Virus record (IMG/VR): IMGVR_UViG_2579778989_000010
Reading direction: 5' to 3' (one strand)
DNA: 14,491 nucleotides
Source of the DNA: a virus
Taxonomy: Duplodnaviria; Heunggongvirae; Uroviricota; Caudoviricetes
The notes beneath the pieces were generated by a model. It saw nothing but the letters and a program-made list of their open reading frames with translations, did not search any database and was not told the origin of the DNA. Made by a program: the position numbers and the translations under genes. Positions 1 through 4,939 of the stretch are shown here, piece by piece; position 1 is the first letter of the stretch, and each line of letters starts with the position of its first letter.

Positions 1-738
1 TCATTCACTCTCTTTCAAACCAGTTTTAACTGTTTGTGGTTTTGGGTAAGGCTGGACTTTGAATAGCTTTGTGTTAAGGCGTTTTCTGGCTCTCTTGTCC
101 AGAAACCGGATGTAACGAAACTGACGGAATTTATGAACACTGGCTCTGTCGATATTAGCCCGCAGATGTTCACCTCGCTGTCCTCCTCGTTTGATTGCAT
201 TCTTGCAAATCTCGTGATACCACTCGCCATCAAGTTCATAGAATGTTGTTTCATGACTGCCTACATAATCAAAATTGCTTGCCTGGTACACGACACCAAG
301 ACAGCCACAACGCTCATCTGCAAACGACTGAACCCACTGCACCTGCGGATAAAGTTGTCTGATTAGTTTGAGCGCGTAACTGATTGCCCTTGATTCGGAG
401 TTTCTCGGCATACAGTCATGCAGCCATAACCGGTTAAGCTCCATATATTCGCGGTTCTGCGTGCCAGTTACGACGCGTGCACCATTGTTTGGATTAAGGG
501 CATAACCCCATTGCATTACGCCAACCAGCTCCCGTTCTGAAAATATGCCCAGATGAAGGTAGGAATTATTTACGAAACGATGGCTGTAATGTTTATTGAC
601 GACGACCAGCCGGGCCAGCCAGCAACTTATTGTCTCAACCCGTAACTCACGGGAGCCATAACCGACGATATTGTCGTTATAGTGAATAAGTTCAGGCGTG
701 CTGATGATACGGGATGTAACTTGCTTTCTGTTCCCCAC
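1..738 (-). CDS. mom: Mom-like DNA modification protein; start uncertain (GTG at 738-736 is one candidate, ORF frame is open up to 933)
   Basis: Long ORF in the other frame overlapping the 3' end of a clear com homologue, as in Mu com-mom; the ~230-245 aa portion downstream of the com stop fits Mom size. Identification is by context rather than recognised Mom motifs. Confidence 0.55.
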
Positions 739-892
739 GACAGGATTTCCTTGTGTATGTGGGGTGCTCTGTGGCGCTCTGAGATGTGATTTGATTGAGG
801 GTTTTACAGCGCGGACATTTAACTTCCAGATAACTGAAGCTGGCTCGTGCCAGTAGCTTGTTACAATGTCGGCACCGTATGTTTCGATACAT
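692..892 (-). CDS. com: Com zinc-finger translational activator of mom
   Basis: Translation [35 protein letters not shown] has the CxxC...CxxC finger and close similarity to Mu Com (IRCKNCNKLL...EIRCPRCK); GGAGG Shine-Dalgarno about 8-10 nt upstream of the ATG at 892; the ORF track's longer form from 937 lacks an RBS. Confidence 0.75.
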
Positions 893-937
893 GGCCGCAT
901 AACCTCCTGCTTTGTTGTTGATATCTTTATCACTCAA

Positions 938-1442: not shown

Positions 1443-1523
1443 TGATACCGGTTCATTTGCCTGCCCGGATGGGGAAGCAGGATTGACTGCTCCATAAGCA
1501 GCTATATTTCTGAATACGAAATA

Positions 1524-1552
1524 CTATCCAGCGATTACATATGGCTGGATAG
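1524..1552. repeat. perfect 9-bp inverted repeat CTATCCAGC-(11 nt)-GCTGGATAG
   Basis: Read directly from sequence; lies between convergent genes; could be an RNA hairpin or a protein-binding palindrome. Confidence 0.5.
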
Positions 1553-1577
1553 CGGCAAAGATGTTTTCATTAGTGTC

Positions 1578-1610
1578 AAACCGGCAGAGGACACCACCGG
1601 TTTGTATTGT
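1578..1610 (+). terminator. hairpin AAACCGG-(12 nt)-CCGGTTT followed by GTATTGT; weak candidate terminator between convergent genes
   Basis: 7-bp stem with a partly T-rich 3' flank on the plus strand; lies 3' of both 1149..1442(+) and 1610..1864(-). Confidence 0.3.
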
Positions 1611-1864
1611 TACATCATGGTACTGTCAGTTCCGGGCTGAGCCGGGTCTGGTTGCTCTGGCTGCGCGTCGGTTTTCGGCTCATTATCAGCATCACTGGCC
1701 GCAACTGCTGGCCCAATAAGTTTTGCCAGCACTTCATCAACGTAAGTGTCGATTTGTGCCTCAAAATCCTTGCGGACCTGCGCTTTCAGCAACTTATTTA
1801 CTTCACCGGAATACAGTGCCTGTTTTACCAGGTCTTCAGTGACGGTGCCTTTAATTTCTGGCAT
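1610..1864 (-). CDS. hypothetical small acidic protein (84 aa)
   Basis: ATG preceded by strong AAGGAGG Shine-Dalgarno; C-terminal half is Asp/Glu/Pro/Gln-rich; no recognisable domain. Confidence 0.55.
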   Translation of the reverse strand: MPEIKGTVTEDLVKQALYSGEVNKLLKAQVRKDFEAQIDTYVDEVLAKLIGPAVAASDADNEPKTDAQPEQPDPAQPGTDSTMM

Positions 1865-1899
1865 GTATATCCTCCTTATGCGGGAATAAAGCCCTGCAA

Positions 1900-2082
1900 T
1901 CAGGGCTGGGTCGGGTCTTTTGGGAGCGGAGTTACCTGCGCTGTTTTACTGAGTTTTTCAGCTGCTGCGTCCTCAATTTTGCGGCGAACATAATTTCTGA
2001 TGGCCTTATAACCACCACTCACCAGATATAACGCACATACTGCCGTGCAGAAATACAATAAAATAAGCTGTAAAAATGTCAT
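1900..2082 (-). CDS. small membrane protein (60 aa): one N-terminal hydrophobic helix and a charged C-terminal tail
   Basis: ATG at 2082 preceded by GGGAGG Shine-Dalgarno about 5 nt upstream (the ORF track's start at 2094 has no RBS); MTFLQLILLYFCTAVCALYLVSGGY is a predicted transmembrane segment. Confidence 0.45.
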   Translation of the reverse strand: MTFLQLILLYFCTAVCALYLVSGGYKAIRNYVRRKIEDAAAEKLSKTAQVTPLPKDPTQP

Positions 2083-2178
2083 TATCCCTCCCAATTATTG
2101 ACATGGTGTTGACACCGGTAATATCTGTTAGGTAAAAAGGTGCACTGCATTTTTTGCTTTGGATATAACGATCTTTTT

Positions 2179-2220
2179 GCCGCCGGTTTCTTGTTTTCCC
2201 TTACCGGCGGCATTTTTTTA
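2179..2220 (+). terminator. intrinsic terminator, plus-strand specific: GCCGCCGGT-(15 nt)-ACCGGCGGC followed by ATTTTTTTA
   Basis: 9-bp GC-rich stem plus a 7-T run on the plus strand; the minus-strand RNA has A's 3' of the stem, so it should not terminate the esterase transcript. Confidence 0.5.
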
Positions 2221-2226
2221 TCCTGC

Positions 2227-4281
2227 TTACGCGTTATTCACTTCCACCACGATACTGTCAATCAGTACCGGGTAAGTCGCATTTTTAGTGATATCGGTCA
2301 CGCGCAACTTGTCTGCCGTAAACGTGCCGACCGGAGACTGCGACAGCATGAATGGTGTCCCGTCCTTACCATCAATGACCGGCGTCACCTCAATACTGTT
2401 GTTACCGGCAAAACGGAAGCCCAGCGTATGCCATTCGTTATTAAATGCGCCGAATGACCCCAGCTTCGTGTTCTGCGCCGTGTTTCCTTTGTGATACATC
2501 ACGTTAAGGTCTGTGGCATCGCTCTGTACGTAGAACGATGCCAGCAGGTTATGACCGGCATTTCCTTCCAGAGTAACCCCTTGCGGCAGGGCAGAAACCG
2601 GCCAGTACAGCGCCAGTGCGTACTGATTAGCCGTAAGCGCGCCATCGAGTTTAAAACGACAACTGACAAGACCACCTTTACCCAGCAGGTCCGCACCATT
2701 ACCAGCATCATGCTCAAGGTACCAGGGGGCTCTTCCTGTTTCCTTGGTCAGTTTCATTGCCTTACCCCCGCTGGCTCCGGCATCATCCACGATTTGAGCC
2801 TTGCCACCTCCGGCAGCCCAACCCTGTGGTGTCAACCGTCCTTCAGACTCAGATGCCCGGTAAGCAAATAGCGTACTCATCGTCGTGGTGTCTGCGGGTG
2901 GCGTGGACGGTTTTGATGGTGTATCAGGTGACGGCTTCTCATCCGGTGGTGTCACGGTCTGCCCGCGCATCAGTTCAGCCGTGCGCCCTGCATGGAGCAT
3001 AATAGCTGAGGCCAGACGGTCTGAAATGACGCCCCTGCGTGCCCATGAGCTGAAATGGCTGTCACGCTGTGTCGAAACAAAACTGCCCTGGGTTCGGGAT
3101 GCTGCACCGTAATACCCGACAGCCACAATATCCGGGTCTTCCGCCGGAGCATTCGTTGGCGTGCTCTGTCCATTCTCATCCGTCAGGAACGGTACAAAGA
3201 AAATTTTCTGTGCTTCCTTGCCTTTGTAGCCACCGTATACTGCCTCATATTTATCGGTGCCAGCGTTTTTCCAGTAATACGTGGTATCACCGCAAATCCA
3301 CGGCACCGTGGTGGCATTTCCACTCACGCACTGCGCAGCAAGCGGAGCCAGGTCAGTTCTGAACTGCTGAACCATGGCCGTGAATAAACTATTATGCTGC
3401 TGGCTTCCTGAGGCAAGGTCTGCCTCTCCCTGCATCCAGACCACAGCCAGAAGTTTGTTTTTCGGGTTTTTCGCCAGCGCGACTTTGGTGCGGCTTACCA
3501 GGTCCTGATACAGAGGTTTACCGGCCCCCCAGCGTGAAGAATCAGCGGAAGCACCGCTGGCCTCACTGAATGAGCCGTCGGCTCCAGTGGTGAATGCTGA
3601 CCCGCCACGACAACAGGGCACCAGAAGTATCCCGGCATTCTGTGGGATATAGGGAAGCAGTTTTTTGGCAATATGCAACCCCTGACCGACAGTCCCGTAC
3701 TGGCCTTTTGCCAGATCAGCTTTCGGGTGGTTTATCCCGCTCATATCCTGAACATCATGCAGGCAGTGGTCTGCCGGAATGATGTCGTTGTATGTACACG
3801 ACGTACCGTTGGGCGTTACCGTACTGCGGCGTGCCAGTTGCTTAATGCGTGGGTCCGGGCGGTCAAACGAATCCGGTAACGGCAGCCCCTCGCCGTAGGC
3901 CATGCCATTTGACTGACCCGCGAGAATGACAACAAAGTAATATTCCGGCTCTGAACTGCTGCCATTCGTGCTACCGGAAGGCCCGGCGTTATCCGGTGCA
4001 TTCCAGTCGGAGGGCGTGAGCGTTCCGGCCACGTCAGATGTGATTGGAATGATGCCAGTCACGCCTGAACTGGTGATTTCTGCACTGGGATTACCGGATA
4101 CCGGCATTACCCATAATGGCTCTTTCGTGCTGAAGCGGATCACGCAGTCTGCGAAGGTGATCCCCCCTTTATTACCCGAAGGGCGGAAAGGGCTTTCAAT
4201 AAATGCCACCGTGCCACCGGCAACCTTGACTGAAAACTCTCCGGGCATGGCGGAGAGCATTTTCCACTTGGAGTCTGACAT
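2227..4281 (-). CDS. SASA/SGNH-family esterase (sialate O-acetylesterase-like; architecture resembles prophage NanS-p), 684 aa
   Basis: SGNH/SASA-like motifs in order: ILAGQSNGMAYG (block I GQSN), VWMQGEAD, RDSHFSSW (candidate DxxH block); N-terminal ~100 aa and C-terminal ~250 aa extra domains; Shine-Dalgarno is weak. Confidence 0.65.
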   Translation of the reverse strand: MSDSKWKMLSAMPGEFSVKVAGGTVAFIESPFRPSGNKGGITFADCVIRFSTKEPLWVMPVSGNPSAEITSSGVTGIIPITSDVAGTLTPSDWNAPDNAGPSGSTNGSSSEPEYYFVVILAGQSNGMAYGEGLPLPDSFDRPDPRIKQLARRSTVTPNGTSCTYNDIIPADHCLHDVQDMSGINHPKADLAKGQYGTVGQGLHIAKKLLPYIPQNAGILLVPCCRGGSAFTTGADGSFSEASGASADSSRWGAGKPLYQDLVSRTKVALAKNPKNKLLAVVWMQGEADLASGSQQHNSLFTAMVQQFRTDLAPLAAQCVSGNATTVPWICGDTTYYWKNAGTDKYEAVYGGYKGKEAQKIFFVPFLTDENGQSTPTNAPAEDPDIVAVGYYGAASRTQGSFVSTQRDSHFSSWARRGVISDRLASAIMLHAGRTAELMRGQTVTPPDEKPSPDTPSKPSTPPADTTTMSTLFAYRASESEGRLTPQGWAAGGGKAQIVDDAGASGGKAMKLTKETGRAPWYLEHDAGNGADLLGKGGLVSCRFKLDGALTANQYALALYWPVSALPQGVTLEGNAGHNLLASFYVQSDATDLNVMYHKGNTAQNTKLGSFGAFNNEWHTLGFRFAGNNSIEVTPVIDGKDGTPFMLSQSPVGTFTADKLRVTDITKNATYPVLIDSIVVEVNNA

Positions 4282-4366: not shown

Positions 4367-4939
4367 TCACGGTACTTTTGGTGACGGAGCTGGTGAGGCA
4401 GGAAAATAACGATAAAGGGTGGAAAGGCCAATATCAAATATCAGTGCGATTTGTTTACGGGACTCGCCATTAGCCAGCAAACGGGCGATTTGCTCCCGCT
4501 CTTTCTCTGTCAGTTTCTGAGGTCTGCCGCCATGACGCCCCTGAGCACGGGCAGCAGCAAGACCCGCGCGTGTACGTTCAATAATGAGTTCCCGCTCCAT
4601 TTCCGCCAGCGCGCCCATTATATGGAAAAAGAAACGTCCCATGGGAGTGGATGTATCAATATTGTCCGTAATGCTGCGGAAGTTAACGCCGCGTTGCCGG
4701 AGTTCTTCTGTTAAAAGGACAAGGTGCTGCATACTGCGTCCAAGGCGATCCAGTTTCCAGACCAGCAGGGTATCCCCTGGCCGGAGTCGCTTTAATGCGC
4801 GTTTAAGTCCGGGACGCTCCCTTGTCTTACCGCTTATTCTGTCTTCGAAAAACAGCTCACATCCTGCACATTCCAGCGCATTTCTTTGTAGCGCCGTATT
4901 CTGGTCATTTGTTGACACCCTGATATACCCAATCAGCAT
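4367..4939 (-). CDS. gin: Gin/Pin-family serine DNA invertase
   Basis: MLIGYIRVSTNDQNTALQRNAL...VWKLDRLGRSM...MGRFFFHIMGALAEMERELIIERT is near-identical in pattern to Mu Gin / e14 Pin (catalytic Ser in RVST); AAGGAA Shine-Dalgarno and a TATAAT-like hexamer upstream. Confidence 0.9.
   Translation of the reverse strand: MLIGYIRVSTNDQNTALQRNALECAGCELFFEDRISGKTRERPGLKRALKRLRPGDTLLVWKLDRLGRSMQHLVLLTEELRQRGVNFRSITDNIDTSTPMGRFFFHIMGALAEMERELIIERTRAGLAAARAQGRHGGRPQKLTEKEREQIARLLANGESRKQIALIFDIGLSTLYRYFPASPAPSPKVP

Follow-up and report, generated by a model that had tools for sequence, protein, structure and literature searches.

A predicted small RNA gene allelic to EcOnc33 between the sialate esterase and DUF1378 genes of a Mu-like Escherichia coli prophage

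The promoter-terminator unit in the esterase-DUF1378 spacer

The IMG/VR virus record IMGVR_UViG_2579778989_000010 (Caudoviricetes), 14,491 nt in length and referred to here in its entirety as the window, carries on its minus strand a gene for a NanS-p-like sialate O-acetylesterase that is followed by the gene of a 60-residue protein of the DUF1378 family. All coordinates below are window positions unless another sequence is named. The unannotated 150-bp spacer between the two genes holds a promoter and an intrinsic terminator of opposite orientation (2109–2220, plus strand; Table 1). We consider it likely that this segment is a self-contained small RNA (sRNA) gene convergent with the esterase gene, namely an allele of EcOnc33 from prophage Sp6 of E. 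coli O157:H7 Sakai, the product of which is most likely bound by Hfq and acts in trans.

The -35 and -10 hexamers of the promoter and the 18-nt spacing between them were each found where the first-pass annotation had placed them, and they are conserved among the alleles compared below. Neither the promoter nor the terminator was called by a generic promoter/terminator scan because the -10 hexamer does not have a T6 and the hairpin loop is longer than 8 nt. The TTGACA-like hexamer found further upstream reads TTGAYA in most EcOnc33-type alleles, the exceptions in the alignments being TTAATA (once) and CGACAT (twice), and may constitute a regulator or UP-like site. The TTGACA-like tandem thus formed (2098–2114) resembles one located upstream of the promoters of the sRNAs PasA and PasC.

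The RNA read from the plus strand at 2140–2226 (87 nt) was predicted to fold with a free energy of -25.2 kcal/mol, as compared with -13.8 ± 2.5 kcal/mol for shuffled sequences (z = -4.6), and none of 200 shuffles folded as well. When the hairpin is read from the minus strand it is followed by AAAAAGAUCG instead of a U-tract, and it should therefore terminate transcription on the plus strand only. The fold, the 10-bp stem with its T7 run and the missing U-tract on the minus strand confirm the strong, strand-specific terminator that had been proposed earlier. Seven nucleotides separate the T-run from the esterase stop codon (2227–2229, minus strand).

In its layout the predicted transcript resembles Hfq-dependent sRNAs that act by base pairing, with an unstructured, U-rich 5' part that contains the candidate seed CUGCAUUUUUUGCUUUGGAUAUAAC, a U-run ahead of the hairpin, the terminator hairpin itself and a U7 tail. 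The 5' part of the body varies across 11 distinct EcOnc33-type alleles, in all of which the core of the terminator loop (2188–2202) is the same. The UUCCCU of this loop could pair with Shine-Dalgarno sequences of the AGGGA type, that of DUF1378 included, and no such loop occurs in the other sRNA types described below. A peptide product was considered and rejected, as the plus-strand open reading frames (ORFs) at 2140–2457 and 2159–2275 continue past the terminator and this allele no longer has the ATG of EcOnc33.

For this strain we infer expression, Hfq dependence, trans action and targets in the following manner. A promoter of the sigma-70 type, with a consensus -35, a spacing of 18 nt and an A-rich -10, would start transcription near 2144–2146, and the GC-rich hairpin and U7 would stop it near 2216–2220, just before the esterase stop codon. 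The RNA, roughly 72–77 nt in length, would be made in the lysogen, where its U-tail and the U-run preceding the hairpin would be bound by Hfq and its U-rich 5' part would pair in trans with host mRNAs; for the orthologue, the arcA start region is on record as one such partner. The terminator would also keep antisense transcription out of the esterase gene.

Table 1. Features of the window around the esterase-DUF1378 junction. Conservation is given as the mean pairwise identity among 11 distinct type-1 (EcOnc33-type) alleles.
Feature	Position	Strand	Basis or description	Type-1 conservation
Upstream TTGACA-like hexamer	2098–2103	+	11 bp upstream of the -35 hexamer	
-35 hexamer of sRNA promoter, TTGACA	2109–2114	+	sequence	invariant
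Promoter spacer, 18 nt	2115–2132	+	sequence	
-10 hexamer, TAAAAA	2133–2138	+	sequence	97%
Predicted sRNA (EcOnc33 homologue), about 72–77 nt	2144–2220	+	5' end by homology, ± 2 nt	81% (body)
Intrinsic terminator	2178–2219	+	stem 2178–2187/2203–2212 (10 bp), 15-nt U/C-rich loop, T7 at 2213–2219	5' stem arm 100%; loop 91%, core CTTGTTTTCCCT invariant
DUF1378 gene, 60 aa	1900–2082	-	Pfam PF07125 (E = 9e-32), PHROG 494, WP_000143468.1	63–81% (coding DNA)
Sialate O-acetylesterase gene (NanS-p-like), 684 aa, SASA and DUF6645 domains	2227–4281	-	Pfam, annotation	83–91% (3' end)
gin-like invertase gene	4367–4939	-	RefSeq annotation/Pfam	
DUF826 gene, 84 aa	1610–1864	-	Pfam PF05696 (E = 6e-16), PHROG 311	
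Hypothetical ORF, 97 aa	1149–1442 in ORF list, 1182–1442 annotated	+	WP_000571916.1; between DUF826 and com	
com	692–937	-	Zn_ribbon_Com (E = 1e-12)	
mom	1–933	-	annotation	

Relation to EcOnc33 and other prophage sRNAs

A search with the 150-nt window spacer located the unit in 361 of 5426 complete E. coli genomes. Identity to a common O157:H7 allele was 81.4% over 149 of the 150 nt (E = 2e-31) and thus spans the entire unit, and an nhmmer profile built from type-1 units gave one match in the window, at 2097–2232 (E = 2e-37). Synteny and antisense orientation are shared as well, the order in Sakai Sp6 being ECs_1527 (esterase), spacer, ECs_1528 (DUF1378), ECs_1529 (DUF826) and holin S.

EcOnc33 appears in Table S2 of Tree et al. 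(2014, Mol Cell, PMC4104026) as an RNA from the minus strand of Sp6 with a Rho-independent terminator; it gave an Hfq-CRAC (cross-linking) peak in five of five datasets and a Northern band of approximately 71 nt (Tree et al. 2014, PMC4104026). The Northern probe used in that study, AAATGTCGTTATATCCAAAGCAAAACATGCAGGAC, is the exact reverse complement of gtcctgcatgttttgctttggatataacgacattt in the Sakai spacer. In the CLASH reads of Waters et al. (2017, PMC5286369) EcOnc33 is positioned at 1557049–1557138 of an older genome version, the coordinates of which equal the current ones minus 141 nt, and its position thus falls exactly on the Sakai spacer. The EcOnc33 reads in this dataset begin at CCUGCAUG. 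As the Sakai orthology, the probe match and the CLASH position all agree, the window element is allelic to an Hfq-binding sRNA that has been detected experimentally. The plus-strand RNA of around 75 nt that had been proposed for 2145–2220 is strongly supported by this 81%-identical relative, its band size and the exact match of its probe.

The two alleles share the terminator stem, the loop core and the predicted size, in addition to their antisense location between the esterase stop and the DUF1378 start and the 81% identity of promoter, body and terminator. They differ in that the window allele carries substitutions at the 5' end and seed (GUCCUGCAUGUUUU to GCACUGCAUUUUUU), has a loop that is 6 nt shorter and resides in a Mu-like instead of a lambdoid prophage. 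With regard to targets, "EcOnc33" occurs 80 times in Table EV7 of the RNase E-CLASH study, which holds island-encoded sRNA-mRNA hybrids (Waters et al., PMC5286369). In one replicated hybrid, with 5 reads at a false discovery rate of 2.7e-4, the EcOnc33 5' end, CUGCAUGUUUUGCU, is joined to arcA (ECs5359) around its start codon (PMC5286369). It was the best-scoring EcOnc33 hybrid seen.

A number of observations weigh against reading the window unit as a trans-acting sRNA gene of this kind. The stretch that pairs with arcA is altered from CAUGUUUU to CAUUUUUU in the window allele (G to U), and the predicted duplex is weaker, at -17.5 kcal/mol versus -22.8 kcal/mol for EcOnc33; the targets may therefore differ from those of EcOnc33. 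Detection of the RNA is limited to the Sakai orthologue, with expression from 2144–2220 being predicted, and the 5' ends of EcOnc33 and, by homology, of the window RNA are provisional. The -10 hexamer departs from the usual form at T6, and the promoter goes uncalled in the generic scan. For PasA, according to the preprint of Zhu et al. (2026), earlier Northern blots pointed to an origin by processing of a longer transcript. EcOnc33 is furthermore without a demonstrated physiological function, the literature search having returned mentions in supplementary tables only and no main-text discussion. Finally, all 50 type-1 units recovered from viral contigs adjoin DUF1378, and the unit may have a cis role linked to this gene.

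The location of the unit has a precedent in PasA and PasC, Hfq-dependent sRNAs of the enteropathogenic E. coli strain E2348/69 (Pearl Mizrahi et al. 2021, PMC8550237; Zhu, Shabalina & Storz 2026 preprint) that are encoded antisense between a prophage sialate esterase gene and the holin operon, with the directionality given as '> < >' in Table S6 (PMC8550237). PasA and PasC and their enterohemorrhagic E. coli homologues EcOnc51 and EcOnc52 resemble the window unit in lying antisense directly after the esterase gene, in having TTGACA, 18 nt and an A-rich -10, and in ending in their own GC-rich hairpin and T7 that abut the esterase stop; these RNAs are 79–85 nt long and Hfq-dependent. The bodies, in contrast, are unalignable, the PasA seed GCCAGCACC is missing from the window, and the PasA/PasC loci examined contain neither DUF1378 nor DUF826. 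The type-1 nhmmer profile scored E = 0.54 or worse against the PasA/PasC loci, with only the promoter region aligning, and what we claim is therefore a shared slot and architecture and not homology.

The prophage sRNA represented by the window unit is already known, though functionally uncharacterized; what is new is the allele and its Mu-like vehicle, and the slot is the one already recognized for PasA and PasC. The unannotated spacer is thereby assigned to a known class of sRNAs by which prophages alter host regulation through Hfq, and EcOnc33, hitherto known from supplementary tables only, is connected with the slot that PasA and PasC occupy behind the sialate esterase gene.

Other sRNA families were evaluated as well. 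The covariance model of Esr41 (Rfam RF02676), an sRNA of similar size, gave a weak full-length match at 2139–2221 on the plus strand (22.2 bits, E = 0.03–0.13) that was driven by a CAUUUU stretch, a terminator of the GCCGGC type and the U-tail. Membership was rejected, as the 22 bits compare with a gathering score of 102 and Esr41 belongs to the SpLE1 island of O157:H7 with other flanking genes and another seed. At gathering thresholds no Rfam family was found anywhere in the window; under permissive settings STnc480, SpF51, DnaX and a snoRNA came up as chance matches. The anti-sRNAs AgvB and AsxR (Rfam RF02702/RF02703) had no match in 1400–2400 even at E values up to 10.

A recurrent frame with different RNA bodies

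The unit was compared across 33 IMG/VR loci found by means of the DUF1378 protein, 50 retrieved from the same database with the terminator pattern of type 1, and several annotated prophages and Shiga toxin (Stx) phages. In the type-1 alignment, conservation of the -35 hexamer, the -10 hexamer and the stem equaled or exceeded that of the flanking coding DNA (Table 1). Because the unit is conserved across genomes and alleles, we regard the existence of the promoter and terminator as settled.

An antisense frame of the same kind was present at every DUF1378 locus examined. It consists of TTGAC[AT], an 18-nt spacer, TAAAAA and a body of 70–105 nt; the -35 hexamer starts 18–26 nt from the DUF1378 ATG, and a GC-rich hairpin followed by T6–8 ends 5–12 nt from the esterase stop. 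TTGAC[AT] with the 18-nt spacer was found in 19 of the 20 antisense units listed, the exception (locus L027) having TTGACG. At least six types of unrelated RNA bodies occupy the frame. The TAAAAA hexamer is also that of types 2–6; PasA, PasC and EcOnc52 have CAGAAA or GAAAAA at the homologous position. All 50 pattern-found type-1 units on viral contigs adjoin DUF1378, and the esterase gene is likewise adjacent wherever the contig reaches that far.

How such bodies may be exchanged is illustrated by a Mu-like locus (L024, IMG/VR 2609459840_000004) that is approximately 100% identical to window 1500–3100 except for 2040–2210, where an unrelated sRNA body and a different set of the first ~14 DUF1378 codons have been swapped in together. 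Replacement between conserved flanks marks the sRNA as a discrete, exchangeable module. The slot is moreover used where DUF1378 is missing, in that prophages PP2 and PP5 of E2348/69 and Sp4 of Sakai carry PasA, PasC or EcOnc52 in the same frame. The results thus describe a slot with a constant promoter and terminator frame and interchangeable bodies that travels with the esterase cassette into Mu-like prophages. No description of the fixed frame, the number of bodies or the allele swap was found in the literature searched, and we regard these as a modest extension of existing ideas on prophage sRNA cargo. They help with the annotation of such cargo in E. coli prophages and with the selection of alleles for study, and do not amount to a new mechanism.

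The same comparison bears on the possibility that the hairpin is a terminator only, which stops plus-strand transcription arriving from the left, for instance from the ORF at 1149–1442, before it enters the esterase gene, the promoter match being fortuitous. The annotated form of this hypothetical ORF (1182–1442) is followed by just a weak terminator-like site at 1487–1501, and the -10 hexamer is non-canonical, both of which would suit this explanation. Promoter and terminator nevertheless travel together in lambdoid prophages that do not have the ORF, the -35 hexamer and 18-nt spacing are conserved across all types, and the Sakai orthologue is seen as a discrete band of ~71 nt. A fortuitous promoter is, on this evidence, highly improbable.

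An effect in cis on the operon junction deserves somewhat more weight. The convergent promoter or its RNA would act on transcripts running from the esterase gene into DUF1378 and DUF826, either through transcriptional interference or through a duplex of ~75 bp that is cut by RNase III, and would limit leaky downstream expression in lysogens; in lambdoid phages its reach would extend to the holin and lysis genes. Since the hairpin does not stop sense transcription and no promoter of DUF1378 itself is visible, read-through transcripts fully complementary to the sRNA are expected. A constant frame filled with at least six body types is also what one would expect if position mattered more than sequence for the function, and the adjacency of all 50 type-1 units to DUF1378 points the same way. 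Within a type, however, the body is conserved (81%, loop core invariant) and the orthologue hybridizes with unlinked mRNAs, from which it follows that a sequence-specific trans function is at least present; the Mu-like context, moreover, has no lysis genes downstream. We judge such a guard of the junction unlikely, and note that it may coexist with the trans role that we favor.

A broader proposal would treat the antisense unit as a fixed expression slot, its promoter abutting the DUF1378 start and its terminator the esterase stop, that guards DUF1378 or the lysis genes in the manner of an antitoxin, its RNA and convergent transcription acting in cis on read-through transcripts, and that in addition swaps bodies among the six or more alleles in order to retarget host mRNAs. 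If this were true, the constant presence of such a unit beside DUF1378 would be functional and not positional. We regard this combination as unlikely.

The distribution of the type-1 element is narrow. Neither a DUF1378 relative nor a type-1 terminator was found in species-representative genomes, and the element occurs only in some E. coli strains and their phages. Megablast against phage genomes gave no match, and a more distant search returned only DUF1378 in the Mu-like inserts of two Stx phages.

Two further loci were noted in the course of the comparison. In Stx2 phage VT2-Sakai (L096, 2864–3000, between nanS-p and a DUF1378-like ORF) there is an unannotated unit of the same frame, comprising TTGACA, 18 nt, TAAAAA, a body of ~75 nt, a hairpin CCGCCAGCG and T8. 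The EcOnc sRNAs listed for Sp5 do not include this unit, which, judged by its sequence, is a candidate for a further sRNA. In prophage PP2 of E2348/69 (L002, 2755–3050) the esterase gene is followed by two antisense units in tandem, namely a PasC/EcOnc52-like one that abuts the stop and PasA, and the reported minor PasA species of 236 nt is thereby explained as read-through.

DUF1378 and the prophage setting of the cassette

The small protein described in the first-pass annotation, with a hydrophobic helix, a charged tail and a strong ribosome-binding site, is real and belongs to DUF1378. It is read from an ATG at 2082 on the minus strand behind a GGGAGGG Shine-Dalgarno sequence, the hydrophobic (transmembrane) helix being single and N-terminal, and 20 residues that are invariant among 12 homologues are spread over both helix and tail. 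PADLOC gave no match to the protein and NCBIfam only sub-threshold chance matches, so that the identification does not go beyond DUF1378 and PHROG 494, which is of unknown function. The literature holds passing mentions of DUF1378 only, and a search combining nanS-p, small RNA and holin had no main-text match. A generic scan found no minus-strand promoter-like site for the gene in 2083–2226. As no promoter is visible and the hairpin does not block sense transcription, co-transcription with the esterase gene is the simplest explanation, and DUF1378 is probably expressed in this way.

It had been suggested that the antisense RNA covers the leader of the membrane protein in a type I toxin-antitoxin-like arrangement. 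DUF1378 would then be a membrane-damaging toxin and the sRNA an antitoxin that blocks its translation or triggers decay of its mRNA. The locus does have traits in common with tisB/istR-1, zorO/orzO and shoB/ohsC, which are divergent, and with hok/sok, which overlap, in that a small hydrophobic protein is encoded beside a terminator-ended RNA of the opposite strand. DUF1378 is of suitable size, its single helix is hydrophobic and its Shine-Dalgarno sequence is strong, and the sRNA is divergent with its promoter 27 nt from the DUF1378 ATG, as in zorO/orzO layouts. An antisense unit is found at every DUF1378 locus examined, and the swap in L024 exchanged the sRNA body jointly with the first ~14 DUF1378 codons.

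The predicted RNA at 2144–2220, on the other hand, is clear of both the ribosome-binding site and the coding sequence, its 5' end lying 62 nt from the ATG, and coverage of the leader was consequently not borne out; an overlap in cis would arise only on transcripts that read through from the esterase gene. Pairing was evaluated by the longest complementary run, with shuffles as the control, since duplex energies on long targets were dominated by long loops and uninformative. In five pairs of sRNA and DUF1378 mRNA the longest run was 9–12 nt including G-U pairs; the fraction of shuffles at least as good was 0.16–0.94, and cognate pairs were no better than non-cognate ones. The suggested folding analysis was in favor of a structured RNA (z = -4.6), and the suggested duplex prediction showed no significant complementarity to the DUF1378 mRNA.

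The locus is therefore unlike the known type I systems in having no overlap with the start region, no significant complementarity, no toxin promoter and no recognized toxin or defense family, and the gene lies within a phage operon. Invariant residues across both helix and tail, the failure to find ECs1528 in the CLASH supplementary files searched, and the occupation of the same slot by PasA, PasC and EcOnc52 where DUF1378 is missing also argue against a toxin. Although DUF1378 always has an antisense unit upstream, it also always comes after the esterase gene, so that position alone could explain the linkage, and analogous units exist without it. The toxin-antitoxin arrangement is unsupported and, in our estimate, very unlikely, and the candidate label should be dropped for this locus, barring contrary evidence in cis.

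Several E. coli chromosomes match the window at 100% identity, among them that of strain JE86-ST05, the RefSeq annotation of which was used; strains DLI.5a and HH35 likewise carry the spacer at 100% identity. Chromosomal ybfB/rhsC genes lie beyond com and mom, and baseplate and tail genes lie on the opposite side. This gene order places the window at the right end of a Mu-like prophage in which the esterase, DUF1378 and DUF826 genes form an inserted cassette, flanked by gin and com/mom. Normally, the home of the cassette is the Q-dependent late operon of lambdoid prophages, and here it is Mu-like cargo. Among the 33 loci found by protein, at least 24 were Mu-like with Com/Mom downstream, 3 were similar but ended earlier, 5 were lambdoid and one (L041) had neither marker; the 50 loci found by pattern included 34 lambdoid and at least 11 Mu-like ones. 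DUF826 followed DUF1378 in 31 of the 33 protein-found loci, with no match in L040 and L041.

Some minor features of the region were also noted. The plus-strand ORF of 97 residues had no match in Pfam, PHROG, NCBIfam or PADLOC, and is found in some Mu-like loci and missing from others. The com-like ORF starts with TTG in the ORF list and overlaps the mom ORF, and RefSeq gives com as frameshifted in the identical sequence of JE86-ST05. The Mu-like insert of Stx2c phage JNE082796 shares the Mu-like context of the cassette.

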